Positions 32,017 to 56,785 are shown, counted from the stretch's first letter. The stretch: DNA of 64,000 bases from Patescibacteria group bacterium (GCA_041742375.1 JBGSIU010000044.1:2161-66160), one strand, 5' to 3'. Made by a program: numbers and translations. The notes: generated by a model not told the origin, from the letters alone.

Positions 32017-32021
32017 ATTCT

Positions 32022-42775: not shown

Positions 42776-43548
42776 AAATAAAAAATTTAGCAATTATTCA
42801 AGCTCGAGTTAGGTCAACAAGGTTGCCGGGAAAAGTGTTGCTGAAAATTTTTGACAAAACAATTCTTGAACATGTCGTAAGCCGTATTAAAAAATGTAGA
42901 TTAGTTAATCTTGTTGTCGTTGCAACAACAACAAATAGTGCTGATTCAAAAATAGCGTCTTTATGTAAAAAAAACAAAATCCCCATTTACCGAGGAAGTG
43001 AAGAAGATGTGCTGGACAGATATTATCAAGTGGCAAAGCTATATCACGCAAAAAATATTATTCGTATCACCTCGGATTGCCCATTGATAGACCCAATAAT
43101 AATTGATGATGTAATTAACGCTCATCTGAAATACAAAGTTGATTACACGTCAAACACTCTTCTCGAAAAATTTCCGGACGGAGAAGATATAGAGATTTTT
43201 AAATTTGCGACGCTTGAAAAAGCCTGGGTAAATGCAAAACTTAAATCAGAAAGAGAGCATGTTACGCCATATATGAGAAAACATTGTGAAATTTTTAAAC
43301 TTCATAGTGTTGGAGCTAAAAAAGATTATAGTGGAAAAAGATGGACACTTGATGAAGCAAAGGATTTTTTATTTATTGAAAAAATATATAAATATTTATA
43401 TAAAAATAGCAATTATTTCGGAATGAAAGAAATTTTGAAGTTATTATATATACGCCCCGAACTAGAAAGAATAAATTCAAATATTACCAGGAATGAAGGC
43501 TATCTCAAATCTTTGCAAAACGATAAAATAGTGAAAAATATATTATGA
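42772..43548 (+). CDS. Cytidylyltransferase of the SpsF/FlmC (CMP-KDO synthetase-like) family
   Basis: 'LAIIQARVRSTRLPGKVLLKI'. The ATG at 42772 gives an ATGA overlap with the upstream stop; the ORF-track start at 42760 is TTG. Confidence 0.7.
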   Translation: MKIKNLAIIQARVRSTRLPGKVLLKIFDKTILEHVVSRIKKCRLVNLVVVATTTNSADSKIASLCKKNKIPIYRGSEEDVLDRYYQVAKLYHAKNIIRITSDCPLIDPIIIDDVINAHLKYKVDYTSNTLLEKFPDGEDIEIFKFATLEKAWVNAKLKSEREHVTPYMRKHCEIFKLHSVGAKKDYSGKRWTLDEAKDFLFIEKIYKYLYKNSNYFGMKEILKLLYIRPELERINSNITRNEGYLKSLQNDKIVKNIL

Positions 43549-44855
43549 ACAAAACGCAAAAATTATACGAAGAGGCGAAGAAAATAATTCCCGGAGGTAC
43601 TCAGCTTTTGTCAAAACGCCAAGAGATGTATGCTCCGGGATTGTGGCCGGCATATTATAAAAAAGCTAAAGGTTGCGAGGTTTGGGATCTAGATGGAAAA
43701 AAATATTTAGACATGAGTTCAATGGGTATTGGTTCATGTATCCTGGGCTATGCCGACCCAGATGTTAACAGGCAGGTAAAAAGAGCAATTGATAAAGCTT
43801 CGATAACCACATTAAACTGTTTTGAGGAAGTTGAATTGGCAAAAATTTTGCTTGACCTTCATCCTTGGGCAGAAAAAGTCAGATTTGCGAGGTGTGGTGG
43901 TGAAGCGATGGCCATTGCGGTTCGAATTGCACGAGCAAAAACAAAGAAAGATGTTGTTTTATTTTGTGGCTATCACGGATGGCATGATTGGTATCTTTCG
44001 GCTAATTTAGCGGACGATAAAAATCTTGACGGTCATCTGCTCGCCGGTTTGAATCCTCTGGGTGTGCCGCGAGGACTTAAAGGAACAGCAATTCCTTTTC
44101 AATATAATAATGCGAAAGAATTTATAAGAGTTTTTAAAGAAAATATAAATAATGTAGGGGCAATTATTCTTGAGCCGATTAGAAATATTTACCCACACAA
44201 AGAATTTATCGACAAGATTCATACAGTCTGCCTTCAATATTCAATTCCGTTGATTGTCGACGAAGTTTCAACCGGATTCAGGCTTTGTCTTGGCGGCGCA
44301 CATCTTATTTTGGGCATTAAACCAGATATCGCGGTCTTTGCCAAAGCCATGAGTAACGGTTTTCCCATGGGAGCAATCATTGGGAAAAAGAATGTTATGA
44401 ATATCGCTCAGGATACATTCATAAGCAGTACATACTGGACTGAAAGAATTGGCCCAACTGCGGCAATTGCCACCATAAGTAAAATGAAAGCCCGTAAGGT
44501 AGATTCTCATTTAAAAAAGATTGGAGAATTAATCATGGAAGGCTGGAAAAAGGCAGCTAAAAAAAATAATATCAAAATTCATATTTCAGGATTTGCAACT
44601 CTTTCCCACTTTGATTTTGTTTGCGAGAACAAACTTGCGGCAAAAACATTTTTTGTGCAGGAAATGTTGAAAAAAGGATTTCTTGCAACAAACGGATTTT
44701 ATCCTTCGTTTGCTCATAAGGAAAAGCATGTGAAACGATACCTTTCAGCTTTAAATTTAGTATTTATCGGATTATCCGCTTCTCTTAAAAAAAGAGATTT
44801 GGCAAAAAGACTAAAGGGTCAGGTTTGTCAATCCGGATTTCAAAGATTAAATTAA
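43545..44855 (+). CDS. Class III PLP aminotransferase (glutamate-1-semialdehyde aminomutase-like)
   Basis: 436 aa with 'GYADPDVNRQVKRAI', 'VDEVSTGFRL' and 'AKAMSNGFPMGA' (PLP lysine region). Confidence 0.8.
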   Translation: MNKTQKLYEEAKKIIPGGTQLLSKRQEMYAPGLWPAYYKKAKGCEVWDLDGKKYLDMSSMGIGSCILGYADPDVNRQVKRAIDKASITTLNCFEEVELAKILLDLHPWAEKVRFARCGGEAMAIAVRIARAKTKKDVVLFCGYHGWHDWYLSANLADDKNLDGHLLAGLNPLGVPRGLKGTAIPFQYNNAKEFIRVFKENINNVGAIILEPIRNIYPHKEFIDKIHTVCLQYSIPLIVDEVSTGFRLCLGGAHLILGIKPDIAVFAKAMSNGFPMGAIIGKKNVMNIAQDTFISSTYWTERIGPTAAIATISKMKARKVDSHLKKIGELIMEGWKKAAKKNNIKIHISGFATLSHFDFVCENKLAAKTFFVQEMLKKGFLATNGFYPSFAHKEKHVKRYLSALNLVFIGLSASLKKRDLAKRLKGQVCQSGFQRLN

Positions 44856-44858
44856 ATT

Positions 44859-45935
44859 ATGCTTGAAATAGTTGAAAAAAAACATCGTAATTTCAATAAA
44901 ATGTGGAATTCCTATCTCCAAACCAATCCGACGGTTTCCTGGCGATATTTAAATGACTGGATTGTCTACCAAAAAGAGTATTCAAAATCGTTTCAAAAAG
45001 ACTTATCGTTTTTGATTAAAGAAGGACAGAATGTTTTAGCAATTTGCCCTTTGCTGATAGAGAATAATAATTCACATTTTCAAGCTTCATCAGGGGATGA
45101 TTATATGCCGTCGCCCGATGTTTCAATGAAATATGACAAAAAATTCAGAAAAAAAATAGAAAATTTTTGTTTTTACCAAATAGATCATTATGCGAAAACA
45201 AAAAAAATTAAAAAAATAAAGATGATGACAGATCCTTGTTCACAGAATTGGGATTTTAATCATTTAACGCAATACGGTTTTCTTGATTCGTCAATCGCCA
45301 CGGAAATTATAGATTTACGTAATTCAGTTTCTGAGATAAAAAGTTCCTTTAGGTCAAGTTATAAATCAATTATTAATCAATCATCAAAAATATATCAAAT
45401 TAAAATAATCGATTGTAAAAATCCGGAATATCAAATTCATGAAGAATATAGAAAATTACACCATAAATCAGCCGGCAGAATTACCAGAAATATAAAAACT
45501 TTTGATCTGCAGTTTGAATTGTTAAAAAAAGACAACGCGATGCTTATAGGTTTAATGTTTGAAAAGAAATTTATTGCCTTCAGCTATTTTTTCCATCATA
45601 ATAGAAATATTTATTATGCATCGTCTTCCGACAACCCCAATTTTAAAGTAAAAGTACCAATTGAACACCTAATCATTTGGTCGGCGATTGAATATTACGT
45701 AAACCGAAAGTTTTCAAAAATGGAGATTGGTTGGCAGCAATTCGGTCCCCAACTTTTTGATTTTCCATCGAACAAAGATATTAATATTTCCTTTTTTAAG
45801 CGCGGATTTGGAGGATCAACAGTTTCTCTATTCCGAGGGGTTAAATATTACGAAACAGGCTTGATGAAAAGAGAAATTAATGAGCAATCAGAAAAAATAA
45901 TTCAGTTATATGAAAAAACAAAACGTAAAAAATAG
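44859..45935 (+). CDS. Hypothetical protein, possibly a FemAB-like/acyl-CoA N-acyltransferase fold
   Basis: 358 aa, soluble, no strong motif recognised. Assigned by context only. Confidence 0.3.
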   Translation: MLEIVEKKHRNFNKMWNSYLQTNPTVSWRYLNDWIVYQKEYSKSFQKDLSFLIKEGQNVLAICPLLIENNNSHFQASSGDDYMPSPDVSMKYDKKFRKKIENFCFYQIDHYAKTKKIKKIKMMTDPCSQNWDFNHLTQYGFLDSSIATEIIDLRNSVSEIKSSFRSSYKSIINQSSKIYQIKIIDCKNPEYQIHEEYRKLHHKSAGRITRNIKTFDLQFELLKKDNAMLIGLMFEKKFIAFSYFFHHNRNIYYASSSDNPNFKVKVPIEHLIIWSAIEYYVNRKFSKMEIGWQQFGPQLFDFPSNKDINISFFKRGFGGSTVSLFRGVKYYETGLMKREINEQSEKIIQLYEKTKRKK

Positions 45936-46629
45936 TCCGGAAAAGTGGTACGAAAATTCATATCAGGAAATGGGTGATTCCGCTCAAAGGAAATACCCAA
46001 ATGAAGAATTGATCAGATTTCTAGGTCGGGATTTTTTTGGAACAAACAAAAAAGTCAGGCAAAAAATTAAAATGCTTGAAGTTGGTTGTGGAATGGGAGC
46101 AAATTTATGGCCGATTGCTCGCGAGGGATTCAGCACTTACGGGATTGACATTTCAGAAAAATCAATTAAATTAGCGAGAAAATATCTTATGTCTTGGGGA
46201 GTAAATGCCGATTTAAGAAAAGCGAACATGGTCAAACTTCCATACAAACAGAATTTCTTTGAGGTTGTCTTTGACGTATTTTCGTCTTATTGTTTAACAA
46301 CGAAAGAATACGAAATTTTTTTACATGAAGTCAGAAGAGTTCTTAAAAAAGGAGGGAAATTTTTTTCCTACACTCCTTCTGTAACGTCACAAGCATTTAT
46401 CAATTATTTGCCATCTGAAAAAATTGATGAGTTTACAATAAATGGTATTAAAAGAAAAACCTCCCCTTTCTATGGAAATGATTATCCATGTCGTTTCACC
46501 AATCAATTTTATCTTGCAAAAAAGCTTAAAGAAAATAATTTTAAAATAGAATATTTAGAAACAGTGTCCAGAAGTTATAATTCTCAATCGGAGAATTTTG
46601 ATTTTCTAGTTGTTGTTGCAATTAAATGA
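45910..46629 (+). CDS. Class I SAM-dependent methyltransferase
   Basis: 'MLEVGCGMGANLWPIAREGFSTYGIDISEKSIKLARK'. Confidence 0.75.
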   Translation: MKKQNVKNSPEKWYENSYQEMGDSAQRKYPNEELIRFLGRDFFGTNKKVRQKIKMLEVGCGMGANLWPIAREGFSTYGIDISEKSIKLARKYLMSWGVNADLRKANMVKLPYKQNFFEVVFDVFSSYCLTTKEYEIFLHEVRRVLKKGGKFFSYTPSVTSQAFINYLPSEKIDEFTINGIKRKTSPFYGNDYPCRFTNQFYLAKKLKENNFKIEYLETVSRSYNSQSENFDFLVVVAIK

Positions 46630-46663
46630 AAAAAACACATATATTATCCGTTGTGTGAATAAT

Positions 46664-47344
46664 ATGAAAAATAATATTCTTATCATTGCCGCTCATCCGG
46701 ATGATGAAGTTTTAGGCTGTGGTGGAACAATTGCGAGATTGTCGTCTGAAGGACAGGAAGTCAATGTTTTGATTTTGGGTGAAGGAATTACCGCAAGAGA
46801 CAGAAGACGAAACTCAGCAAAAAGAAAAAAAGAGATATGGACTCTGCATAAGCAAACGGATAAGGCAAATTTACTTCTCGGGGTAAAGAAAGTCATAAAT
46901 CTTGGTCTTCCCGACAATAGATTTGATGAACTTCCGCTTATTGAAATCGTGAAAAAAATTGAAGAAGTGAAAAATAAAATTAATCCAAAAGTTATTTTTA
47001 CCCACTATAGAAATGATTTGAATATAGACCACAGGACAACATACAGAGCAGTTATAACTGCAACACGACCGATTAAAGGAGAACTTGTCCAAGAAATATA
47101 TTCTTTTGAAACAATTTCATCCACTGAATGGAATTTTCCGCAAACATTTTCACCAAACGTTTTTTTTGATATTTCAAAATTTATCGATATCAAAATAAAA
47201 GCCATGGAGCAGTATCTAAGCGAAATCAAGAAAAACATCCATCCGCGCTCTTCAAGAGGAATAAAACTCGAAGCCGAAAGTCATGGAATTAAAACTGGCT
47301 TCGATTTTGTCGAGGCCTTTGAAGCAGTTAGGATCATGAAATGA
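46664..47344 (+). CDS. PIG-L/LmbE-family N-acetyl-sugar deacetylase
   Basis: 'ILIIAAHPDDEVLGCGGTIARL'. The ATG at 46664 is preferred; the ORF-track start at 46610 overlaps the upstream gene. Confidence 0.8.
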   Translation: MKNNILIIAAHPDDEVLGCGGTIARLSSEGQEVNVLILGEGITARDRRRNSAKRKKEIWTLHKQTDKANLLLGVKKVINLGLPDNRFDELPLIEIVKKIEEVKNKINPKVIFTHYRNDLNIDHRTTYRAVITATRPIKGELVQEIYSFETISSTEWNFPQTFSPNVFFDISKFIDIKIKAMEQYLSEIKKNIHPRSSRGIKLEAESHGIKTGFDFVEAFEAVRIMK

Positions 47345-48042
47345 ATACTATTTTGATTGTCACTATTAAATCTTGGAACATAAAAAATGCGCGAATTTTA
47401 AAACAAAAATTGAGTAAAAAGATAAAAGTAGAGATAATAACCGAAAAAGACGGATTAACGATTGAAAAAGTAAAAAAAATAGCCCCAAAATACATTTTTT
47501 TCCCTCACTGGTCGTGGATTGTTCAAAAAGAAATTTACGAAAACTTTTTATGTGTCAATTTCCATGAAACAGATTTACCATTTGGCCGTGGTGGAAGTCC
47601 CCTGCAAAATTTAATTTCGCGAAAAATTTATAAAACAAAAATCACAGCCCATAAGATAACCAAAGAAATTGACGCAGGGGATATTTATCTTCAAACGGGA
47701 ATAAACATCAAGAGAGGATCAGCACAAGAGTTGTTTTCGAAAATATCTAAAATCATTTTTTTCAGAATGATAACCGAAATTTTAGAAAAAGGCCTTTATC
47801 CTGAACCGCAAAAAGGGAAAATCGTTATTTTCAAAAGGCGAAAATCAGAAGAAAGCAATTTGGCAGAATTTAACGGAAAAAGTCTAAATAATTTATATGA
47901 TTTTATCCGTATGCTCGATGCCGAAGGATATCCAAAAGCGTTTATTAAATTAAATAATATGAAAATTCTTTGCTCTGATGTAAAATACGCTCATAATTCC
48001 CTTTTGGGAAAATTTGAAGTAGTCAAAAATGAAACAAATTAA
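47341..48042 (+). CDS. Formyltransferase-family protein (Fmt/PurN-like catalytic domain)
   Basis: 'VNFHETDLPFGRGGSPLQNLI' matches the HxSLLPxxRG formyltransferase signature. Confidence 0.65.
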   Translation: MNTILIVTIKSWNIKNARILKQKLSKKIKVEIITEKDGLTIEKVKKIAPKYIFFPHWSWIVQKEIYENFLCVNFHETDLPFGRGGSPLQNLISRKIYKTKITAHKITKEIDAGDIYLQTGINIKRGSAQELFSKISKIIFFRMITEILEKGLYPEPQKGKIVIFKRRKSEESNLAEFNGKSLNNLYDFIRMLDAEGYPKAFIKLNNMKILCSDVKYAHNSLLGKFEVVKNETN

Positions 48043-49078
48043 GATTGGCAACAAGACAATAAACGAAAATTCTCCGGTATATTTTGTGGCAGAAATGTCG
48101 GCCAATCATTTGCAGAAATATGACCTGGCTGTTGAAACGATTCATGCCATGAAAAAAGCGGGGGCTGACGCAGTTAAGCTTCAAACCTACACCCCTGATA
48201 CAATAACTCTTGACTGCGATAATAAATATTTTACACTCCATCAAGGCACAATTTGGGACGGACAAAAATTTTATGAGCTATATAAAACAGCATACACGCC
48301 ATGGGCTTGGCACTCGAAGCTTCAAAAAGTTGCCCACAACCTTGGTATGGAATTTTTTTCCACACCGTTTGACGAATCTGCAGTTGATTTTTTGGAAAAA
48401 TTAAAAGTTCCCGCATATAAAATTGCTTCTTTCGAAATTGTCGATATTCCCTTAATTGAAAAAACTGCCTCAAAAGGTAAACCCATGATAATTCCAACCG
48501 GTGTCGCTGGGATTTCTGATATTGCAGAAGCAGTCGAAGCATGCAGGCGTCAAGGAAACGATCAAATAATCCTTCTCATCTGCTCGTCATCATATCCTGC
48601 TTTGCTCGAAGAGATGAATTTAAAAACATTGCCGAATATGGCGAGTACTTTCGGAACTCTAATCGGTTTATCCGACCATACACTTGGGCAAACCGTTTCA
48701 ATTGCTGCAGTCGCGCTTGGAGCAAAAATGATAGAAAAACATTTTACCCTAGATAAGAAGCTTAGCGGTCCAGATTCAGCTTTTTCCTTAGAGCCAAAAG
48801 AGTTTAAAGAGATGGTTACGGCTGTTAGAGAAGCTGAAAAGGCATTAGGAAGAGTAACGTATGAAATAACTGATAAGAAAAGGAAAAACCGCGAACTTTG
48901 TCCCTCTCTTTTTGTGTCAGAAAATGTAAAAAAAGGAGATATTTTAACAAATAAAAATATTCGGTCCGTGAGACCGGGATTTGGTTTGCCGCCAAAATAT
49001 TTAAGCCAATTATTGGGTAAAAAAATGCGTTTCAATTTAAAAAGGGGCACGCCTCTTAAATGGGAGCATGTAGAATAA
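48029..49078 (+). CDS. NeuB-family nonulosonic acid synthase (pseudaminic acid synthase PseI-like) with a C-terminal SAF domain
   Basis: 'IGNKTINENSPVYFVAEMSANH...AGADAVKLQTY', 'IGLSDHTLG' and C-terminal 'IRSVRPGFGLPPKY'. Confidence 0.85.
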   Translation: MKQIKIGNKTINENSPVYFVAEMSANHLQKYDLAVETIHAMKKAGADAVKLQTYTPDTITLDCDNKYFTLHQGTIWDGQKFYELYKTAYTPWAWHSKLQKVAHNLGMEFFSTPFDESAVDFLEKLKVPAYKIASFEIVDIPLIEKTASKGKPMIIPTGVAGISDIAEAVEACRRQGNDQIILLICSSSYPALLEEMNLKTLPNMASTFGTLIGLSDHTLGQTVSIAAVALGAKMIEKHFTLDKKLSGPDSAFSLEPKEFKEMVTAVREAEKALGRVTYEITDKKRKNRELCPSLFVSENVKKGDILTNKNIRSVRPGFGLPPKYLSQLLGKKMRFNLKRGTPLKWEHVE

Positions 49079-49093
49079 AAACCTTCTATTTAT

Positions 49094-49585
49094 ATGTTGT
49101 CTATAAATCATACTATTATCCGTACAGTCACGAAAGATGATTCGCAATTAATTTTGAGCATAAGAAACGATAAAGAGTTACGTAAATTTTCTTTTAACGA
49201 CAAAAAAATATCTAAACAAGCTCATAAAAGATGGTTTGATAAAATGATCTCAGAGGAAAATAATATCCATTTAATATTAGAATATAATTCTAAAACAGCC
49301 GGACTCATTCGTTTAGATATATTAAATATAGATAAAAAATCTGCTCTTGTAGGAATTATTGTAATTGTAAAAGAATTTAGAGGGAAGGGATTAGGAAAAA
49401 TTCTTTTTAATGAGGCAATTAAAAAGCTTCGTGAAACATTTCCCAATATAAAAAGCATTAAAGCATATGTTTTAACAACGAATGTAAAATCAATGAATTA
49501 TTTTTTAGCCCTAGGTTTTAAAAATAAAAAAAGTGTGTTAAGAAAAGGTAAAAGTGCAATCGAATATGAACTTACAAATATATGA
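49094..49585 (+). CDS. GNAT N-acetyltransferase, PseH-like
   Basis: 163 aa GNAT fold ('VGIIVIVKEFRGKGLGKILFNEAIK...KAYVLTTN'). Lies between the NeuB-family gene and the CMP-synthetase gene. Confidence 0.6.
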   Translation: MLSINHTIIRTVTKDDSQLILSIRNDKELRKFSFNDKKISKQAHKRWFDKMISEENNIHLILEYNSKTAGLIRLDILNIDKKSALVGIIVIVKEFRGKGLGKILFNEAIKKLRETFPNIKSIKAYVLTTNVKSMNYFLALGFKNKKSVLRKGKSAIEYELTNI

Positions 49586-50295
49586 ATAAAATATTGTTGA
49601 CAATTTGTGCACGAGGTGGGTCAAAAGGTGTTAAAAATAAAAATATAAAAAATTTAAACGGTTCTCCTTTAATTTACTACACGATTCAACAAGCACGAGA
49701 ATGGGGAAGAGCTAAACACATTGTGGTCAGTACGGATTCGGAAAAAATCGCAAAAATAGCAAAAACTTGCGGAGCTGAAGTTCCGTTTTTACGACCAAAA
49801 GAGCTTGCTGAAGATAAAAGTCCAAAATTACCAGTCATTCGCCACGCACTTCTGGAATGTGAAAAAATATATCGTGAAAAATATGATTTTGTTGTTGATT
49901 TGCAGCCGACATCGCCCGTGAGGAAAATTAAAGATTTAAAAAATTGCTTAAAGCTTTTTCTTAAAGCGAAACCGCACATGCTTATCAGTGTCTCAAATTC
50001 AGACAAAAATCCATATTTCAATTTAGTTGAACAAGTTAACAGAATGGAAATTCGTCTGTGTAAAAACGCCGACAGACAAATAACCAGACGTCAGGATGCG
50101 CCAAAAATTTATGCAATTAACGGATCGATTTACATCTATGACAGAAGTTATCTCCTGAAAAAGGAAAATCTTTCACCGATTAGCGACAAAACTGTCATAT
50201 ATCAAATGGATGAATACTCTTCAATTGATATAGATAATGAAATTGATTTCAGATTTGTTGAATTTTTAATTAAAGAAAAATATATTTCTATATAG
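49582..50295 (+). CDS. CMP-nonulosonate synthetase (acylneuraminate cytidylyltransferase family, NeuA/PseF/LegF-like)
   Basis: 'ILLTICARGGSKGVKNKNIKNLNGSPLIYYTI'. Confidence 0.8.
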   Translation: MNKILLTICARGGSKGVKNKNIKNLNGSPLIYYTIQQAREWGRAKHIVVSTDSEKIAKIAKTCGAEVPFLRPKELAEDKSPKLPVIRHALLECEKIYREKYDFVVDLQPTSPVRKIKDLKNCLKLFLKAKPHMLISVSNSDKNPYFNLVEQVNRMEIRLCKNADRQITRRQDAPKIYAINGSIYIYDRSYLLKKENLSPISDKTVIYQMDEYSSIDIDNEIDFRFVEFLIKEKYISI

Positions 50296-50298
50296 CAT

Positions 50299-51153
50299 AT
50301 GCTTCATAGGATTATCGCGCGACTTGATATTAAAGGTCCTAATTTGGTTAAGGGGATACATCTTGAAGGTTTGAGAGTGTTGGGAAAACCGGAAGAGTTT
50401 GCTAAATATTACTTTAATGAAGGAATTGATGAGTTAATTTACGTTGACACGGTTGCAAGTTTATATGGCAGAAATAGTTTGGATGATATTATTTCTAAAA
50501 CAGCCGCCAAAATTTTTATTCCACTAACGGTTGGTGGGGGTATACGTTCAATAGAAGATATAAAGAGAATTCTAAGAGCGGGGGCAGACAAAGTTGCGTT
50601 AAACACGGCGGCCATCAAAAACCCAAAAATTATAAGTGAGGCAGCCAATATTTTTGGTTCATCAACGATTACTGTTTCCATAGAAGCACTAAAACAAAAT
50701 AATGGTGAATATCTGGCATATACCGACAACGGAAGAGAATATACGGGGATTGAAGTTGTTGCCTGGGCAAAAAAAGTTGAAAAATTGGGAGCCGGAGAAA
50801 TTCTTTTAACCTCAATTGATAATGAGGGGACAGGGAAAGGATATGATTTGGAATTAATTAAAAAGGTCGCGCGTAGAGTTTCGATCACAACTGTTGCCTG
50901 TGGTGGAGCAGGTTCAATGAAAGATCTCTCCGAAGCGATTATTTTTGCAGGGGCCGATGCAGTTTCTGTTTCATCGATACTGCATTATAGTTATATCAAA
51001 AAACATAAACGCATTGATGGTTATGAAGATGAAGGGAATATCGAATTTTTAAAGAATGAAAATTTAAACCCGGATGCTTCTTTTGTTGAAGCCAATATTG
51101 AATCGATTAAATTTTTTTTATCTAAGAAAAAAATACCAGTACGTCTGTCCTGA
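50299..51153 (+). CDS. HisF-like cyclase subunit paralog (WbuZ/HisF2-type; acetamidino-group biosynthesis)
   Basis: 'IIARLDIKGPNLVKGIHLEGLRVLG...VDTVAS' with a (beta/alpha)8 HisF pattern. Sits in a glycan cluster next to HisH-like and WbuX-like genes. Confidence 0.85.
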   Translation: MLHRIIARLDIKGPNLVKGIHLEGLRVLGKPEEFAKYYFNEGIDELIYVDTVASLYGRNSLDDIISKTAAKIFIPLTVGGGIRSIEDIKRILRAGADKVALNTAAIKNPKIISEAANIFGSSTITVSIEALKQNNGEYLAYTDNGREYTGIEVVAWAKKVEKLGAGEILLTSIDNEGTGKGYDLELIKKVARRVSITTVACGGAGSMKDLSEAIIFAGADAVSVSSILHYSYIKKHKRIDGYEDEGNIEFLKNENLNPDASFVEANIESIKFFLSKKKIPVRLS

Positions 51154-51180
51154 AAATTATACCAATATTTATAAAAATTA

Positions 51181-51834
51181 ATGATTAAACCGAAAATCGC
51201 GATTATTGATTATAAAATGAGCAATTTATTCAGTATAAAACATGCCTGTGATTTTGTCGGCGGCGCGTCTTCCATCACTTCAGACAAAAAAGATATTAAA
51301 AATGCCGATGCAATCATTCTTCCGGGAGTTGGTGCCTTCGGCGCGGCAATGCAAAATCTAAAAAAGTTAGATTTATTAGATTTGATTATTCAGTTGGTTG
51401 AAAAGAAAAAACCTTTTATGGGCGTCTGTTTGGGAATGCAGCTCTTTTTCTCCCAAAGCGAAGAATTTGGGATTCATAAAGGACTTAATTTAATTCAAGG
51501 CAAAATAATGAGGTTTCCTTCATCTTATGGATCTAAAAACAAAATTAAAGTTCCACAAATCGGCTGGAATAAAATTTATCACGTTAAAAAGAAAAAAAAA
51601 CAATGGGGGCTTTCGCCATTAAGCGATGTGAAAGAATTTGCGTATATGTATTTTGTTCACTATTACTATTGTTGCCCAAGCAACAAAGAAGACGAAGTTT
51701 GCGCAACTTCTTACGAAGGGGTTGAATATTGTTCGGGCATCCTGCATAATAATATTTTTGCAGTACAATTTCATCCGGAGAAAAGTGGGCAGATTGGATT
51801 ACAAATTTACAAAAATTGGATACATAATTTATAA
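51181..51834 (+). CDS. HisH-like class I glutamine amidotransferase subunit (WbuY/HisH2-type)
   Basis: 'IAIIDYKMSNLFSI...AIILPGVGAFG', catalytic 'GVCLGMQL' and 'FAVQFHPEKS'. Confidence 0.85.
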   Translation: MIKPKIAIIDYKMSNLFSIKHACDFVGGASSITSDKKDIKNADAIILPGVGAFGAAMQNLKKLDLLDLIIQLVEKKKPFMGVCLGMQLFFSQSEEFGIHKGLNLIQGKIMRFPSSYGSKNKIKVPQIGWNKIYHVKKKKKQWGLSPLSDVKEFAYMYFVHYYYCCPSNKEDEVCATSYEGVEYCSGILHNNIFAVQFHPEKSGQIGLQIYKNWIHNL

Positions 51835-51840
51835 ATTAAT

Positions 51841-53064
51841 ATGAAAAAAGTTAAAACTAAATTTGGCTTGCCGAGAAAAGTTGTCTTTTGCACGAATTGT
51901 GTCATATCGAATCAGCGTCCAGCGTCATCAATTGAATTTTTCAACAAGAAGGAAAGCAAAAAAGCCACAATGCATATAGACGAGAGCGGAGTTTGCGATG
52001 CGTGTTTGGCCGCAAAGCAGAAAGAAAAAATTGATTGGAAAGAGAGAGAAAAAGAACTGATGAGACTGCTTGACAAATATCGCCGAAATGACGGGAATTA
52101 CGACTGTGTCGTGCCTGGAAGCGGAGGAAAGGATAGTGCTTGTCAAGCTCACCTTTTAAAATATAAATATGGCATGCATCCATTAACCGTGACATGGTCA
52201 CCAATCCTTTACACCGATTATGGATACAAAAATTTCAAAAATTGGATAGAAATCGGAGGTTTTGACAACATAGCTTTCAAACCAAATGGTCGGGTTATGA
52301 AGCTTTTAACAAAACTTGCGATTGAAAATCTTCTGCATCCATTTCATACTTTTATCCTCGGCCAAAAAAATTTAGGGCCCAAAATCGCTCTTAAATATAA
52401 AATCCCCCTCATTTTTTATGGTGAGAACGAAGCGGAATATGGAAACCCAATCGCAGACAACTCAACATCGTTGAGAACAAAATCATATTATTCCATTTCT
52501 AATCTCGATAATATTTTTTTAAGCGGAGTAAAAATCAGTAGACTAATCGAAAAATATAAAATCGCACTTTCGGATTTGATGGCATTTTTACCGGTGCATT
52601 ATAACGAGCTTAAAAATCGTAATTTACAAGTTCACTATCTCGGTTATTATCTTAAATGGGTTCCGCAAGAAGCATATTACTTTGCAGTTAAACACACAGG
52701 TTTTCAGCCCAGACCTTTTCGAACTCAGGGAACATATAGTAAATATAACAGTATTGATGATAAAATTGACGACCTTCATTATTACACAACATATATAAAG
52801 TTTGGAATTGGTAGGGCGACATATGATGCTTCTCAGGAGATCAGAAATAAACATTTAACTCGTGAAGAAGGTGTTGCTTTGGTAAAAAAATTTGACGGAG
52901 AATTCCCAGACAAGTATTTTCAGGAGGTAATGGATTACTTGGAAATTAAACCTGAATTTTTTCATAAACTTTGTAATAAATTCAGATCTCCGCATCTTTG
53001 GAAAATAGTTGGAAATCAATGGAGGTTACGGCACAATGTTTGGAATGGAGGTACAGACGATTAA
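51841..53064 (+). CDS. N-acetyl sugar amidotransferase (WbuX/WbpG-like, PP-loop ATP-pyrophosphatase)
   Basis: N-terminal Cys cluster 'CTNCVISNQRP...CDAC' and PP-loop 'VVPGSGGKDS'. Confidence 0.8.
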   Translation: MKKVKTKFGLPRKVVFCTNCVISNQRPASSIEFFNKKESKKATMHIDESGVCDACLAAKQKEKIDWKEREKELMRLLDKYRRNDGNYDCVVPGSGGKDSACQAHLLKYKYGMHPLTVTWSPILYTDYGYKNFKNWIEIGGFDNIAFKPNGRVMKLLTKLAIENLLHPFHTFILGQKNLGPKIALKYKIPLIFYGENEAEYGNPIADNSTSLRTKSYYSISNLDNIFLSGVKISRLIEKYKIALSDLMAFLPVHYNELKNRNLQVHYLGYYLKWVPQEAYYFAVKHTGFQPRPFRTQGTYSKYNSIDDKIDDLHYYTTYIKFGIGRATYDASQEIRNKHLTREEGVALVKKFDGEFPDKYFQEVMDYLEIKPEFFHKLCNKFRSPHLWKIVGNQWRLRHNVWNGGTDD

Positions 53065-53108
53065 AATATTGTTAATTATAATGCTTACAGTATTATAATG
53101 TTGTTGAT

Positions 53109-54494
53109 ATGAAAGTATTATTGGTGGTTTATGATAATGATTCGTATATTTCTTGGTTTCCGCAAGGCTTGGCGTATGTGGCAACCGTTTTGAGGAAAAA
53201 AGGGCATGAGGTGACAATTTATAGCCAGGATGTTTATCATTGGAAAGAATCACATCTAAGAAAGTTCCTTGATAAAAGAAAATTTGACGTGGTCGGAGTT
53301 AGTGTGATCGCCGGATATTATCAATATCGTAAACTTCTTCAAATATCAAAAGCAATAAATCGATCAAAGTACAGACCTTTTTACATTCTGGGCGGTCATG
53401 GACCGGCACCTGAACCGGAATATTTTATGAAAAAAACTAAAGCTGATATCATTGTAATTGGAGAAGGTGAAATTACAACAGTCGAAATCATGGAAGCTTT
53501 GGAGAAGAAAAGAAAATTTTCTTCAGTGAAAGGAATAGCATACAGGGATGGCAAAAAAATTATCGTTAACGAAAGAAGACCATTAATCGCCAATATTGAC
53601 CAAATTGATTTTCCTGCTTATGATCTGTTTCCCTTAGATCACTATGCTTTGATGCGTACTCTTCCGGGTCTTGAGAATAATGAGCGTTGTATGCCGATGT
53701 TGTCTGGAAGGGGATGTATCTTTCAGTGCAATTTTTGTTACAGAATGGATAAAGGGTTCAGACCCCGTTCGATTAAAAATATTCTTGAAGAAGTGGAAAA
53801 GCTGCAGAAAGACTATGCCATTACTTCAATTGTTTTCTCAGACGAATTACTGATGAGTTCAGTAGACAGAACGATTGAAGTTTGTGAAGGATTGCTGAAA
53901 TCAAAAGTCAAATTCAAATGGGGTTGCAACGGACGCTTGAATTTTGCAAAGTTTGACGTTTTAAAATTAATGAAAAAAGCAGGCTGCACATTCATTAATT
54001 ACGGAATTGAATCAATGGATCAAGATGCTTTGAATGTCATGAAAAAAGGATTAACAGTTAAAATGATTCACGATGGCATTAAAAACACATTGCAGGTTGG
54101 TATCAATCCGGGTTTAAATATTATTTTTGGCAACATCGGTGAAACGAAAGCAGTCTTAAAAAAAGACGTTGAATTTCTCCTGAAATACGACGATCACGCG
54201 CAAAGAAGAACTATCCGTCCGGTGACACCTTACCCAGGTTCACCTCTTTATTATTATGCAATAGAAAAAGGATTGCTTAAAGATTGCCAAGATTTTTACG
54301 AGAATAAACATGTTAACTCCGATCTTTTAGCGGTTAACTTCACCAATATGTCAGACGACGAATTCCACAAGGCTTTATTTCGGGCTAATAAAAAATTGCT
54401 CACCGCATACTTCGAAGATTCTAAACAAAAAATCATTGAAAGCGCGAGACAACTTTACACAGGAAAAAATAATGCGTTTCGAGGTTTCCGCTAA
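53109..54494 (+). CDS. B12-binding domain radical SAM enzyme (class B radical SAM, methyltransferase-like)
   Basis: N-terminal B12-binding Rossmann region, then 'LSGRGCIFQCNFCY' (CxxxCxxC). 461 aa. Confidence 0.8.
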   Translation: MKVLLVVYDNDSYISWFPQGLAYVATVLRKKGHEVTIYSQDVYHWKESHLRKFLDKRKFDVVGVSVIAGYYQYRKLLQISKAINRSKYRPFYILGGHGPAPEPEYFMKKTKADIIVIGEGEITTVEIMEALEKKRKFSSVKGIAYRDGKKIIVNERRPLIANIDQIDFPAYDLFPLDHYALMRTLPGLENNERCMPMLSGRGCIFQCNFCYRMDKGFRPRSIKNILEEVEKLQKDYAITSIVFSDELLMSSVDRTIEVCEGLLKSKVKFKWGCNGRLNFAKFDVLKLMKKAGCTFINYGIESMDQDALNVMKKGLTVKMIHDGIKNTLQVGINPGLNIIFGNIGETKAVLKKDVEFLLKYDDHAQRRTIRPVTPYPGSPLYYYAIEKGLLKDCQDFYENKHVNSDLLAVNFTNMSDDEFHKALFRANKKLLTAYFEDSKQKIIESARQLYTGKNNAFRGFR

Positions 54495-54512
54495 TTTCCT
54501 CGAGTAATTAAA

Positions 54513-54572
54513 AATTAATATCAATTTTATGTTGATGAATAAGTTTATATCAGTATAATATTGATATTAATT
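54513..54572 (+). promoter_or_regulatory. Nested inverted repeats (AATTAATATCAAT ... ATTGATATTAATT, inner ATATCA-gtataat-TGATAT) containing a TATAAT box, upstream of the second NeuB gene
   Basis: A perfect 13-bp inverted repeat with an inner 6-bp inverted repeat. TATAAT at 54553-54558. Confidence 0.45.
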
Positions 54573-54580
54573 AAGCGTAA

Positions 54581-55627
54581 ACGATTACTATTAAAAATAA
54601 AAAGATCGGTCAAGGTCATCCTTGCTTCATTATCGCCGAAGCAGGAGTTAATCATAACGGAAATTTGGATTTGGCGTTTAAATTAGTTGACGCAGCAAAA
54701 GAAGCTGGTGCCGATGCAGTCAAGTTTCAAACATTTAAAGCAGAAAATGTTGTTATTCCGCGAGGGAAAATGGTCGGTTATCAAATTAAAAATATTGGTC
54801 AAGAAAAAAGTCAACTGGAGATGATTAGGAAAATTGAGTTAAAAGATAAAGATTTTGGTAAAATTAACGAATATTGTAAAAAAAAAGAGATCATATTTCT
54901 TTCCACACCGCACGGTGGTAAACAAAGCGTTGATATGCTTGCTTCTTTGCGTATGCCAGCCTATAAGATAGCTTCAGGAGATTTAACAAATTACATCATG
55001 TTGGAAAAAATTGCTAAACTTGGCAAGCCTGTCATTCTGAGTACGGGTATGGCAACTTTAAAAGAAATTAGAAATACGGTTGCTTATCTTCAATCGAAGG
55101 GCAATGATCAAATTATTGTTTTACAATGCACAACTAGCTACCCATGCCCAGCAGATGAGGCAAATGTAAGATCGATGTTAACCATCGCCCAAAAAGTCAA
55201 CGTTTTAGTTGGTTATTCCGATCACACTTTGGGAAATGAAGCTGCCATAGCCGCGACTACTCTCGGAGCCATGATGTACGAGTGTCATTTTACTCTTGAT
55301 AAAAAGTTACCGGGACCGGATCACATTGCTTCAGCAAGTCCCCAAGAATTGAAATCGCGAATCAAAGCTATAAGAATAACAGAAAAGATTCTTGGAAATT
55401 GGCAAAAGGAACCGACTAAGAGTGAAACAGGGGAAATGTTGGAAACGATGAGGAAAAGTGTCGTTGCGGCACACAGGATGAAAAAGGGGCATATTATATC
55501 TACTAATGATTTAGAAGCCAAAAGACCAGGAGATGGTTTATCTCCGGTTTATTTTGAAAAGCTTATCGGACTGGTTCTAAAAAGAAATATAAAGAAAAAT
55601 GAGCAGTTATTAATATCTCATTTCTAA
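54581..55627 (+). CDS. Second NeuB-family nonulosonic acid synthase (LegI/NeuB-like) with SAF domain; start codon unresolved
   Basis: The conserved N-terminus 'IGQGHPCFIIAEAGVNHNGNLDLA' is encoded upstream of the ORF-track TTG at 54665. The frame is open back to the TAA at 54578-80 with no ATG/GTG/TTG. 'VGYSDHTLG' and a C-terminal SAF 'LEAKRPGDGLSP'. Confidence 0.75.
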   Translation, partial: TITIKNKKIGQGHPCFIIAEAGVNHNGNLDLAFKLVDAAKEAGADAVKFQTFKAENVVIPRGKMVGYQIKNIGQEKSQLEMIRKIELKDKDFGKINEYCKKKEIIFLSTPHGGKQSVDMLASLRMPAYKIASGDLTNYIMLEKIAKLGKPVILSTGMATLKEIRNTVAYLQSKGNDQIIVLQCTTSYPCPADEANVRSMLTIAQKVNVLVGYSDHTLGNEAAIAATTLGAMMYECHFTLDKKLPGPDHIASASPQELKSRIKAIRITEKILGNWQKEPTKSETGEMLETMRKSVVAAHRMKKGHIISTNDLEAKRPGDGLSPVYFEKLIGLVLKRNIKKNEQLLISHF

Positions 55628-55633
55628 TAATAT

Positions 55634-56785
55634 TTGATGAATTCTAATAAAAAAACAATTGCTTTTATAACAGGAACAAGAGCGGATTATGGTATCATGC
55701 AGCCTGTTTTGCAAAAAATTCAGCAAAGCCCGAAATTAAAACTCCAACTATACGCGACAGGCATGCATTTAATGTCTGATTATGGCCATACAATTGATAT
55801 TGTTAAACGTGATTTCCCAGAAGTTTCGACAATTAACGTTGTTTTTAAAACCAATAATCGTTTAGGCATGGCTCGTTTTACTTCTCAACTCCTCAGTAAA
55901 CTGACAGAAATTTTTGCAAAAAATCGCCCAGATCTGTCTTTAGTATTTAGTGATCGATCCGAGATGCTGTGCGTAGCGATTACTTCTTTATATTTTGGTA
56001 TACCTATTGTTCATATTCATGGAGGCGATATAACAAACACTATTGATGATTCGACTCGTCATGCCATTAGCAAAATGTCTCATATCCATTTTCCTCCAAC
56101 AGAAGAAGCAAAAAATCGACTAATTAACATGGGAGAAGAAAAATGGCGAATTCATGTTGTTGGTGCTCTTGGTCTTGATTCATCTGCCAATAAAAATCTT
56201 TTAGCAAGAAAAGAATTGTTTGAGAAATTTAAAATTGCCACAGGATCAAAATTTGTTTTAGTCACTCAACATCCGGTCAGCGAAGAAATAAATGAAGCTG
56301 CAAAGCAGATGAAAGAAACGATAGAAGCGATTAAAAAAATAAATTTGCCGGTAATAGTTATATACCCAAATGCTGATGCAGGTAGCCGTGATATGATAAA
56401 AATCATAAATAAAGAAAAAAATAATCCAGTATTCCATATTTTCCCCAACATCGATCATAAAATTTTTCTTTCTCTGGAAAAGGAAGCAAATGTTTGGGTA
56501 GGTAATAGTAGCGCCGGAATTGTGGACTCATCTTTTTATAAAACGCCCGTTGTTAATATTGGTATCAGACAGCTTGGTCGACCGCAAGGAGAAAACATTA
56601 TCAATGTTAACCATGATGCAGGAGAAATATATAAGGCGATGAAAAAATCATTATATGATAAAAAGTTTTTAAAAAAAATATCTTTTTGTCATAACTCTTG
56701 GGGCAACGGGTCTGGAACGCCAAAAATTATAAAAATATTAGAAAATCTTATAATTAATAAGAGAATGTTGATAAAACATGCATGA
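55634..56785 (+). CDS. UDP-N-acetylglucosamine 2-epimerase (hydrolysing), NeuC/LegG-like
   Basis: 'IAFITGTRADYGIMQPVLQKI...ATGMHLMSDYGHT' and 'VHIHGGDITNTIDDSTRHAISKMSHIHF'. Confidence 0.85.
   Translation: MMNSNKKTIAFITGTRADYGIMQPVLQKIQQSPKLKLQLYATGMHLMSDYGHTIDIVKRDFPEVSTINVVFKTNNRLGMARFTSQLLSKLTEIFAKNRPDLSLVFSDRSEMLCVAITSLYFGIPIVHIHGGDITNTIDDSTRHAISKMSHIHFPPTEEAKNRLINMGEEKWRIHVVGALGLDSSANKNLLARKELFEKFKIATGSKFVLVTQHPVSEEINEAAKQMKETIEAIKKINLPVIVIYPNADAGSRDMIKIINKEKNNPVFHIFPNIDHKIFLSLEKEANVWVGNSSAGIVDSSFYKTPVVNIGIRQLGRPQGENIINVNHDAGEIYKAMKKSLYDKKFLKKISFCHNSWGNGSGTPKIIKILENLIINKRMLIKHA

Follow-up and report, generated by a model that had tools for sequence, protein, structure and literature searches.

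An acetamidino-forming amidotransferase trio and a neighbouring class-B-type radical SAM protein as probable tailoring modules of a nonulosonate locus

The window, a stretch of 64,000 nucleotides from a Patescibacteria group bacterium (GCA_041742375.1 JBGSIU010000044.1:2161-66160), carries at 50299-54494 the three genes of an acetamidino-forming amidotransferase system, followed by a gene for a cobalamin-type radical SAM (rSAM) protein. Does the rSAM protein act on the product of the trio, as a sequence-only reading had proposed, or do two separate activities share one locus? We addressed this question through family scores and motifs, the genomic context of both modules in other genomes, and comparison with known rSAM enzymes.

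The trio, the radical SAM gene and their surroundings

All four open reading frames lie where they had first been placed, and further genes of nonulosonate (NulO) biosynthesis are found in the window:

39152-40147, + strand: LegB-like 4,6-dehydratase (83% identity to the L093 gene)
40149-41903, + strand: LegC/PseC-like aminotransferase fused to a methyltransferase domain (67% identity to the L093 gene)
49582-50295, + strand: CMP-nonulosonate synthetase (PseF/LegF-like cytidylyltransferase; PF02348, 75 bits)
50299-51153, + strand: HisF-like (WbuZ/AglZ/HisF2-type) subunit of an acetamidino-forming amidotransferase system (284 aa; PF00977 His_biosynth, 207 bits)
51181-51834, + strand: HisH-like class-I glutaminase subunit (WbuY/AglY/HisH2-type; 217 aa; PF00117, 67 bits)
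51841-53064, + strand: WbuX/WbpG/PseA/PtmG-family N-acetyl-sugar amidotransferase (PP-loop; 407 aa; TIGR03573)
53065-53108, + strand: AT-rich spacer of 44 nt between the WbuX and rSAM genes, read from the sequence
53109-54494, + strand: class-B-type radical SAM protein, N-terminal B12-binding-like Rossmann domain and radical SAM core (461 aa)
54584-55627, + strand: NeuB/LegI-type nonulosonate synthase (TIGR03569)
55634-56785, + strand: NeuC/LegG-type hydrolysing NDP-sugar 2-epimerase (TIGR03568, 400 bits; cut-off 235.9)

The identities first given to the trio (HisF-like, HisH-like and WbuX-type) were borne out by Pfam and NCBIfam scores and by motifs. The WbuX-type protein lies far above the cut-off of TIGR03573 WbuX (362.3 versus 203.2 bits), carries the PP-loop SGGKDS at residue 94 and has homologues of 72-85% identity in several phyla, while the HisH-like protein passes TIGR01855 HisH (202.7 bits; cut-off 105.4) and contains the nucleophile motif GVCLG with its catalytic Cys. 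The HisF-like subunit finds its top NCBIfam match in TIGR03572 WbuZ, at 269.1 bits and under the cut-off of 299.7, and also falls under the cut-offs of the HisF (254.7 versus 294.55 bits) and AglZ_HisF2 (201 versus 310 bits) models. As the assignments of the open reading frames are strong homology matches, chance is of no concern.

The three genes are contiguous, with gaps of 27 and 6 nt, within a NulO/glycan cluster and stand in the conserved Z-Y-X order, which was seen again in L016, L045, L059, L073, L075 and L096-L100. Their components correspond to those of the known acetamidino-forming systems WbuX/WbuY/WbuZ of E. coli O145, WbpG with HisH2/HisF2 of P. aeruginosa, AglX/AglY/AglZ of Methanococcus maripaludis and PseA/PtmG of Campylobacter, and against these the trio shows nothing unusual, its HisF-like subunit scoring slightly under the WbuZ equivalog cut-off. 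By analogy with these families, the HisH-like glutaminase of this module (50299-53064) would release ammonia and the HisF-like barrel, whose presumed role is ammonia channelling, would hand it on to WbuX, which would then turn the N-acetyl substituent on an activated amino sugar into an acetimidoyl group.

The product of 53109-54494 had been read as a B12-binding radical SAM protein with the motif CIFQCNFC, and this too was confirmed: both expected domains are present (PF02310 B12-binding, 58 bits against a cut-off of 32; PF04055 Radical_SAM, 67 bits), and the motif, of the form CxxxCxxC, occupies residues 203-210. C203, C207 and C210 are invariant in family alignments of 23 and 26 sequences, and FRGFR near the C terminus is invariant across the family. 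The supposed translational linkage of this gene to WbuX did not hold, the two being separated by the 44-nt AT-rich spacer, in which we saw by eye no gene overlap and no Shine-Dalgarno-like motif. A further gap of 89-170 nt separates the rSAM gene from NeuB, and the two gaps that flank it are the largest of the stretch, the others ranging from -23 to +27 nt.

Among the adjoining genes, the CMP-nonulosonate synthetase scores 143 bits against TIGR03584 PseF, under its cut-off, and NeuB scores 377.7 bits against TIGR03569 when translated from TTG 54665 and 413 bits from 54584 (cut-off 399.65). Compared with the NeuB of L099, the conserved N-terminus lies upstream of this TTG, the first canonical start, and the gene may therefore start at a non-canonical codon or have lost part of its 5' end.

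The radical SAM family accompanies legionaminic-acid-type pathways

The rSAM family comprises more than 4,400 homologues, the best 120 of which share 64-84% identity with the window protein and occur in Clostridia, Sulfuricella, Omnitrophota, Kuenenia, WOR-1 and others. It is a tight family, with 59-84% identity over many bacterial phyla and a Woesearchaeote (a DPANN archaeon) and a mean column identity of 77% in a 23-sequence alignment that includes the Woesearchaeote; the cultured hosts seen are anaerobes. The window protein matches no curated family, all 22 of its NCBIfam matches lying far under cut-off. By sequence the family is classed as uncharacterised, extremely conserved and of class-B type.

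We surveyed 61 loci of this family whose flanks extend over 6 kb or more (hereafter well-flanked), and at least one core NulO gene is present in 47. A CMP-transferase occurs in 69% of the 61 and a NeuB-type synthase in 62%, followed by a DegT aminotransferase (57%), NeuC (51%), PtmE (38%) and PglD/LegH (31%); 43 of the 48 synthases near rSAM genes are of NeuB type, not PseI type. A typical operon reads SDR-DegT-PglD-NeuB-NeuC-PtmE-(PtmA/PtmF-like)-rSAM-CMP-transferase. The rSAM gene most often adjoins the CMP-NulO synthetase or NeuB, and is often squeezed between core pathway genes at gaps of 9-20 nt. Downstream partners differ among loci, from Maf and flagellin to LIC12162-type/polysialyltransferase-like enzymes and ABC-transporter polysaccharide loci: Desulfoscipio geothermicus combines flagellins, Maf and rSAM with a full Leg set adjoining the rSAM gene and no trio, and Acetivibrio cellulolyticus holds its family gene inside a flagellar glycosylation island. 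By genomic context, the family is an accessory of legionaminic-acid-type NulO pathways (LegB, LegC, LegH, NeuC/LegG, NeuB/LegI, PtmE, LegF). The earlier suggestion of a sugar-pathway (here NulO) enzyme outside the described Pse/Leg pathways is thereby supported, there being no curated-family match; in the literature we found no paper connecting radical SAM chemistry with nonulosonic acids, and no solved NulO structure for any organism with the rSAM gene.

The radical SAM gene and the trio occur independently

The proposed functional tie between the rSAM protein and the trio was not supported by related genomes, in which the two are uncoupled, the outcome that the sequence-only reading had itself named as telling against it. 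Any trio gene is found in only 13 of the 61 well-flanked rSAM loci and in 7 of the 46 whose flanks reach 12 kb or more, and the rSAM family is absent from all five trio-centred contexts (L096-L100), three of which (L096-L098) place the trio cassette after the CMP-transferase of NeuB/NeuC-type clusters. The nearest relatives each carry one module. L093, which holds the closest rSAM relative (84% identity), has the order CMP-transferase-rSAM-NeuB with gaps of 12 and 9 nt and no HisH or HisF beside it; its CMP-transferase is 61% identical to the product of 49582-50295, which lies immediately before the trio in the window as its counterpart does before the rSAM gene, and the counterparts of the 39152-41903 genes lie immediately upstream of this run. 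L099, which holds the closest WbuX relative (85% identity; 72% for the HisF-like protein), reads WbuZ-WbuY-WbuX-NeuB-NeuC with no rSAM gene in the run: the colinearity detected by blastn breaks at 53073/54618, and window positions 53074-54617, including most of the 44-nt spacer, are missing. The rSAM sequences themselves are alike with and without the trio, since no residue tells the two groups apart (largest frequency difference 0.36), mean identities within and between them are 0.656, 0.664 and 0.661, and trio-positive loci are dispersed over the rSAM neighbour-joining (NJ) tree. We therefore conclude that trio and rSAM are independent tailoring modules that share a slot beside the CMP-sugar synthetase.

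It is thus improbable that the rSAM protein methylates or otherwise radically alters the acetimidoyl group made by the trio, with the four genes forming one functional unit. Such a unit would fit their adjacency in the window and in other loci: in 7 of the 13 well-flanked loci that contain both modules, no more than 70 nt separate the rSAM gene from a trio gene, L071 has it between WbuY and WbuZ, the window order WbuZ-WbuY-WbuX-rSAM recurs in L075, and in L097 another class-B-like rSAM gene comes after WbuX. The adjacency in 7 of 13 loci and the L071 layout leave some room for an rSAM reaction connected with the N-acyl group or the amidine. However, about 80% of well-sampled rSAM loci lack the trio, and the adjacency itself is accounted for by the common slot next to the CMP-transferase. 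In Campylobacter, moreover, N-methylation of the acetimidoyl group, the type of modification first proposed for the window enzyme, is assigned to PtmH (Cj1325/6), which makes N-methylacetimidoyl legionaminic acid and is a conventional SAM methyltransferase, not a radical SAM protein; the known precedent therefore needs no rSAM enzyme (PMC13317340).

Likely substrate and chemistry of the radical SAM protein

Since the family accompanies legionaminic-acid pathways, usually without the trio, the rSAM protein probably makes its own modification of a legionaminic-acid-like sugar. We favour, with some reserve, two independent tailoring modules in a large surface-glycan locus, the rSAM protein acting on a legionaminic-acid-type intermediate, most likely as a radical C-H tailoring enzyme. 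The NulO biosynthesis set is its sole constant partner, from which we infer a soluble pathway intermediate as substrate: from this context, the 5,7-diamino-3,5,7,9-tetradeoxynonulosonate, either free or activated with CMP, is the likeliest candidate, rather than the finished glycan or the amidine. A [4Fe-4S] cluster on C203/C207/C210 would cleave SAM reductively, and the resulting 5'-deoxyadenosyl radical would abstract hydrogen at a C-H position of the sugar. The radical so formed on the substrate would most likely be quenched by a methyl group from methylcobalamin in the N-terminal domain, yielding a derivative that is C-branched, has 10 carbons or is of N-propionyl type. Such C-methylation is our leading guess, tentatively held and drawn from family priors. 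The class B methylases GenK, GenD1, Fom3, TokK, CysS, TsrM and MgmA, whose substrates are sugars and small molecules, share 16-20% identity with the window protein, which misses the NCBIfam cut-off of every characterised methylase family; we know of no methylated NulO product. As a prior for methylation, the best-represented group among B12-dependent rSAM enzymes is that of the C-methyltransferases (PMC12931638), and, as a lead, mass spectrometry has hinted at rare ulosonic acids of the 'higher-carbon' kind (PMC8157484).

An unlikely but serious alternative is a non-methylating radical enzyme, perhaps without cobalamin, that acts on the NulO or an NDP-sugar precursor by AprD4-, OxsB-, HpnJ- or BchE-like dehydration, epimerisation, oxidation, anaerobic hydroxylation or skeletal rearrangement. 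These four non-methylating enzymes are all among the top structural or sequence neighbours: OxsB is the top Foldseek match, AprD4 and the cobalamin-dependent methylases TsrM, MgmA and CysS tie in their fold similarity to the window protein, and BchE (137.5 bits; cut-off 481) and HpnJ (134.7 bits; cut-off 578), the latter a remodeller of a glucosamine unit, lead the NCBIfam matches with alignments that span both domains. The rSAM gene is also present in a Woesearchaeote, from a lineage that generally has few pathways for making cofactors. Yet the similarities are remote. Identity to the neighbours is 16-20%, and NCBIfam scores are 3-5 fold under the cut-offs, all of which are missed (BchE, HpnJ, HpnR, PhpK, BzaD, MgmA, KedN5, TsrM, AprD4, ArsL and others); for the class B enzymes BchE and HpnJ the shortfall is 3.5-4.3 times, and their bacteriochlorophyll and hopanoid context is unrelated to the genomic setting of the window protein. 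AprD4 (PDB 6FD2; about 18% identity), the radical SAM 1,2-diol dehydratase of apramycin biosynthesis, matches only the radical SAM half of the window protein, its model aligning to residues 166-409 and the sequence match covering residues 194-397, whereas genuine B12-binding family models align over the N-terminal domain of the window protein as well; moreover, a dehydration of the AprD4 type would find no vicinal diol in legionaminic acid. In favour of this alternative, AprD4 and ArsL show that a Rossmann-like N-terminal domain need not bind cobalamin (PMC12931638), although the N-terminal domain of the window protein, for its part, scores above the B12-binding cut-off of Pfam.

We regard it as highly improbable that the protein hitch-hikes in surface-glycan islands and acts on another part of the glycoconjugate, be it another sugar, a lipid carrier or a protein acceptor. 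Consistent with such a role, NulO core genes are missing from the flanks of 14 of the 61 well-flanked loci, 25% of rSAM loci hold further B12-rSAM paralogues, and in Kuenenia the family gene is surrounded by several such paralogues, methyltransferases and glycosyltransferases with no NeuB within 10 kb, in an organism whose S-layer glycan is heavily methylated with no NulO reported (PMC5088730). Transferases, acceptors and other sugars nevertheless differ by locus, with NulO genes alone recurring; the tight insertion of the rSAM gene between core pathway genes also argues against this role, and the high similarity of the protein in different domains of life, above 60%, is in keeping with a single small-molecule substrate that does not vary. 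If our favoured reading of two independent modules is correct, the sugar of the window would bear both an amidine and a radical-SAM mark, each installed independently.

Gene content around the trio and the radical SAM gene

The entire 64-kb window is a single surface-glycan locus, whose content includes many GT2 and GT4 glycosyltransferases, PMT_2-type membrane transferases and DUF2079 proteins. Two nonulosonic acid (NulO) routes are represented, each by part of its set, one pseudaminic and one NeuB/NeuC-type. The amidotransferase trio and the B12-binding-domain radical SAM protein (hereafter rSAM) sit at the seam between the CMP-transferase and NeuB.

Trio and rSAM genes (window positions)
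50299-51153, +, HisF-type barrel, WbuZ-like; PF00977 207 bits, best NCBIfam 'glycosyl amidation-associated protein WbuZ' 269 bits (cut-off 299.7)
51181-51834, +, HisH-type class-I glutaminase (WbuY); TIGR01855 202.7 bits (cut-off 105.4), GVCLG nucleophile motif
51841-53064, +, WbuX-family N-acetyl-sugar amidotransferase; TIGR03573 362 bits (cut-off 203), PP-loop SGGKDS
53109-54494, +, rSAM; PF02310 B12-binding domain 58 bits (cut-off 32), then PF04055 core, CIFQCNFC at residues 203-210

Surrounding features (window positions)
31168-32786, Wzm/Wzt-type ABC-2 transporter
32823, PseB, pseudaminic set, 483 bits
33836, PseC, pseudaminic set, 512 bits
39152, LegB-like SDR, NeuB/NeuC-type set
40149-41903, LegC/PseC-like DegT aminotransferase fused to a class-I methyltransferase domain, NeuB/NeuC-type set, 584 aa
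48029, PseI, pseudaminic set, 484 bits
49094, PseH-like GNAT, pseudaminic set
49582, PseF-like CMP-transferase, pseudaminic set
54584/54665, NeuB, NeuB/NeuC-type set
55634, NeuC, NeuB/NeuC-type set
3' of NeuC, ATP-grasp protein, SDR, metallophosphoesterase and a further DegT aminotransferase, NeuB/NeuC-type set

The four ORFs of the sequence-only reading are all present on the + strand at the coordinates it gave, and their identities were borne out by profile matches. The translational linkage it proposed between WbuX and rSAM does not hold, as a 44-nt gap lies between the two genes. This spacer is AT-rich, with no Shine-Dalgarno-like motif seen on reading the sequence, and a further 89-170 nt separate rSAM from NeuB; the two are the largest spacers of the operon stretch, in which neighbouring genes are spaced by -23 to +27 nt. 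Promoter and terminator scans here gave results no better than shuffled sequence. The trio itself is ordinary and well precedented. WbuX is 72-85% identical in MAGs of Patescibacteria, Elusimicrobia, Nitrospirae, Bacteroidia and Omnitrophica, a cross-phylum conservation which suggests that the trio cassette may frequently be transferred horizontally.

Several peculiarities of the window were observed by comparison with other loci. The aminotransferase-methyltransferase fusion corresponds to two separate genes in the syntenic locus L093 (7485-9202; 373 and 199 aa). Relative to L093, the window also carries approximately 7.7 kb of extra genes (41909-49585) between the aminotransferase and the PseF-like CMP-transferase, encoding an aldo-keto reductase, a second cytidylyltransferase, a class-III aminotransferase, a FemAB-like protein, a methyltransferase, a PIG-L deacetylase, a formyltransferase, PseI and the GNAT; this block looks like a second, heavily tailored NulO route. 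The window NeuB has no canonical start codon before its conserved N-terminus (…IKNKKIGQGHPCFIIAEAGVNHNG; 54578-54667): an in-frame TAA occupies 54578-80, and no ATG, GTG or TTG follows it before the TTG at 54665. When translation is taken from 54584 instead, the TIGR03569 score climbs from 377.7 to 413 bits and passes the 399.65 cut-off; the orthologue in L099, the locus with the closest WbuX, begins MKKMIKIGNKRVGNNYPCF. Initiation at an ATT or ATC codon is possible, as is truncation of the gene's 5' end at the junction of the rSAM segment.

Association of the rSAM with the trio

The sequence-only reading had coupled the rSAM to the trio, with possible methylation of the acetimidoyl group. Trio genes were scored across rSAM loci by HMMs on six-frame ORFs; tblastn misses divergent WbuX such as that of L093, and both approaches led to the same conclusion. 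WbuX was detected in 17 of the 94 loci screened by HMM, WbuZ in 15 and WbuY in 12. One or more trio genes occurred in 7/46 loci whose flanks reach 12 kb or more, and in 6/15 loci with 6-12 kb.

The nearest relatives of the two modules are reciprocal. L093 encodes the closest rSAM (84% identity) and is syntenic with the window (GFO 76%, DegT 77%, SDR 83%), with the order SDR-DegT-MT-CMP-transferase-rSAM-NeuB-formyltransferase-NeuC-PIG-L and gaps of 12 and 9 nt around the rSAM, yet has no HisH or HisF. L099 encodes the closest WbuX (85%) in the order WbuZ-WbuY-WbuX-NeuB-NeuC, without an rSAM. Its DNA matches window positions 50674-53073 colinearly (78%) and resumes at 54618-55785; the intervening 53074-54617, comprising the rSAM and both spacers, is therefore extra in the window. 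The rSAM family was found in 0/5 trio-centred contexts picked by WbuX similarity, L099 being one of the five. Uncoupling from the trio in related genomes was looked for and found, in L093 and in these five contexts.

Trio-positive loci are dispersed across the rSAM tree, and no alignment column separates trio-positive from trio-negative rSAMs (largest frequency difference 0.36); a specialised subclade of trio-associated enzymes was rejected on these grounds. Pairs of trio-positive rSAMs average 0.656 identity and pairs of trio-negative ones 0.664, against 0.661 for mixed pairs. Taken together, the dispersed loci, the near-equal identities and the lack of a separating column indicate that the rSAM is the same with or without amidine formation. 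What survives of the earlier interpretation is a sugar-tailoring enzyme outside the described pathways, whilst its tie to the amidine is lost, given any trio gene in only 13/61 loci, reciprocal relatives and indistinguishable rSAMs. For a methylated acetimidoyl group, a non-radical route via PtmH is known (PMC13317340).

Where both modules are present with adequate flank, they are directly adjacent in 7/13 loci, the rSAM of locus L071 lying between WbuY and WbuZ, and in three loci (L096-L098) the trio stands beside the CMP-transferase. The modules could conceivably share a site of action, such as the same N-acyl group before amidination. The simplest reading is that trio and rSAM are tailoring cassettes sharing one slot beside the CMP-transferase, and they should be annotated as separate modules.

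Two variant arrangements were observed amongst the comparison loci. In L093 (4526-6479), a nitrilase-superfamily CN_hydrolase resembling an NAD-synthase glutaminase lies immediately 5' of the divergent WbuX (TIGR03573 231 bits), and may be an alternative ammonia-supplying partner of a WbuX-type amidotransferase. In L097 (9275-11299), another NeuB/NeuC cluster, the gene after WbuZ-WbuY-WbuX encodes a class-B-like radical SAM protein of a different kind, 674 aa long (29% identity to the window rSAM over only 119 residues; its KedN5-like match of 109 bits lies far under the cut-off), and a carbamoyltransferase comes next.

Conservation and genomic company of the rSAM family

A search of 5.8 billion proteins returned more than 4,400 rSAM matches, of which the top 120 are full-length at 457-498 residues (460-469 in nearly all cases) and 64-84% identical; named sources among these 120 include Clostridia, Desulfoscipio, Desulfitobacterium, Acetivibrio, Sulfuricella, Omnitrophota, Kuenenia and WOR-1. 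In an alignment of 23 family members that takes in a Woesearchaeote, a Melioribacteraceae MAG and a Planctomycetota MAG, mean column identity is 77% and a C-terminal FRGFR is invariant. Against 50%-identity cluster representatives, the family amounts to one or two representatives (61% and 55%), beyond which lie a graded set at 39-50% and a large cloud of paralogues at 30-37%. Three representatives (P0147, P0150 and P0157) are giant proteins of 2,096-2,331 aa with four B12-rSAM-like stretches, 28-30% identical to the window rSAM.

The rSAM is more conserved than the surrounding pathway enzymes: between the window and L093, identity is 84% for the rSAM, 61% for the CMP-transferase, 55% for NeuB and 39% for NeuC, and between the window and the archaeal locus L006 it is 62% for the rSAM and 39% for NeuB.

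We collected 91 loci with a family member: 8 from reference genomes (scanned with a single protein), 80 from metagenomes and 3 from look-ups. Their neighbouring genes were scored with tblastn and by clustering every flanking ORF de novo. Of the 61 loci flanked by 6 kb or more, 47 contain at least one core NulO gene.

Neighbours of the rSAM family (share of the 61 loci flanked by 6 kb or more)
CMP-NulO synthetase, 69%
NeuB-type synthase, 62%
DegT aminotransferase, 57%
NeuC, 51%
LegB-like SDR, 51%
PtmE, 38%
PglD/LegH, 31%

PtmE is the GlcN-1-P guanylyltransferase typical of the GDP-linked legionaminic (Leg) route. The typical operon order is SDR-DegT-PglD-NeuB-NeuC-PtmE-(PtmA-like SDR, PtmF-like GFO)-rSAM-CMP-transferase, and 43/48 nearby synthases are closer to the window NeuB than to the window PseI. 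The family is embedded in NulO pathways of many bacterial phyla and of DPANN archaea. Acceptor systems vary: Desulfoscipio geothermicus has flagellin and Maf, with a complete Leg set directly 3' of the rSAM and no trio; in Acetivibrio cellulolyticus the rSAM lies in a flagellar island (FlaG, FliD, FliS); other loci have LIC12162-type or polysialyltransferase-like transferases, or are ABC-transporter loci. Because the NulO biosynthesis set is the constant element while acceptor systems vary, we infer that the rSAM acts on a soluble NulO intermediate. Substitution for a missing core Leg enzyme was rejected, as complete Leg sets co-occur with the rSAM.

Three glycan loci (L003, L017 and L011 of Kuenenia stuttgartiensis) carry three or four B12-binding radical SAM paralogues beside the family member. 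The Kuenenia S-layer O-glycan is reported to bear up to five methyl groups on six sugars, at undetermined positions (PMC5088730).

Enzyme class and proposed reaction

No curated family accommodates the rSAM: all 22 NCBIfam matches score far below cut-off (BchE 137 vs 481 bits, HpnJ 135 vs 578, ladderane-lipid rSAM 118, PhpK 106, AprD4 79). A sequence profile search placed AprD4 (E 4.6e-21, over the radical SAM half alone) nearest among solved structures, followed by OxsB, MgmA, CysS, TokK and TsrM. An AlphaFold model (pLDDT 88.8, pTM 0.88, confident) retrieved OxsB and AprD4 first in Foldseek; sequence and fold matches in the PDB are remote and essentially tied. These neighbours make the architecture class-B, although structure comparison does not separate methylases from non-methylases. 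According to a 2026 review (PMC12931638), neither AprD4 nor ArsL binds cobalamin, although each has a Rossmann-like domain; the rSAM differs from AprD4 in that its N-terminal domain scores above the PF02310 threshold. The AprD4 model aligns to residues 166-409 only, whereas genuine B12-family models span the N-terminal domain, and this alignment together with the PF02310 score argues in favour of cobalamin use.

The protein displays motifs of a [4Fe-4S] site that cleaves SAM and of a B12-type domain, and its genes are associated with Leg-type pathways. The substrate would be a Leg-type NulO, either free or CMP-activated, or one of its late precursors. A 5'-deoxyadenosyl radical would abstract hydrogen from the sugar, and methylcobalamin would then donate a methyl group to yield a C-methylated sugar. 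[quoted passage not shown] Non-methylating chemistry (epimerisation, oxidation, anaerobic hydroxylation or rearrangement) is a less likely alternative, and the class-B neighbours are compatible with either. More broadly, it is possible, though less likely than not, that the family is the first radical SAM enzyme of NulO biosynthesis, modifying the carbon skeleton of legionaminic acid before transfer, by C-methylation to a branched or 10-carbon ulosonic acid or by anaerobic hydroxylation or epimerisation. Rare ulosonic acids described as 'higher-carbon (potentially 10 C)' were reported from Magnetospirillum gryphiswaldense and Methanococcus in a survey by mass spectrometry (PMC8157484); the family could explain such unassigned signals, which we regard as a lead only.

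The rSAM family appears undescribed. Literature searches on radical SAM with nonulosonic, legionaminic, pseudaminic or sialic acid or flagellin glycosylation returned nothing relevant, and a term search of the 2026 review gave no 'sugar' or 'glycan' and one generic 'carbohydrate' (PMC12931638). The protein is best classed with the radical SAM tailoring enzymes of class-B type, among which its substrate class would be new. NulOs decorate flagella, S-layers, capsules and LPS, and shape motility and phage and immune recognition; to our knowledge, their diversity consists of N-acyl and O-substituents added by conventional enzymes. That the rSAM exceeds the core pathway enzymes in conservation points to an undescribed, chemically demanding sugar modification. 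If the family does modify the carbon skeleton of legionaminic acid before transfer, the flagella and surface polysaccharides of anaerobes would bear sialic-acid-like sugars of a new class, widespread in bacteria and archaea. Knowing the reaction would enlarge the known chemistry of NulOs and the range of substrates accepted by class-B radical SAM enzymes, and would make the gene a genetic marker predicting the modified sugar from genomes.
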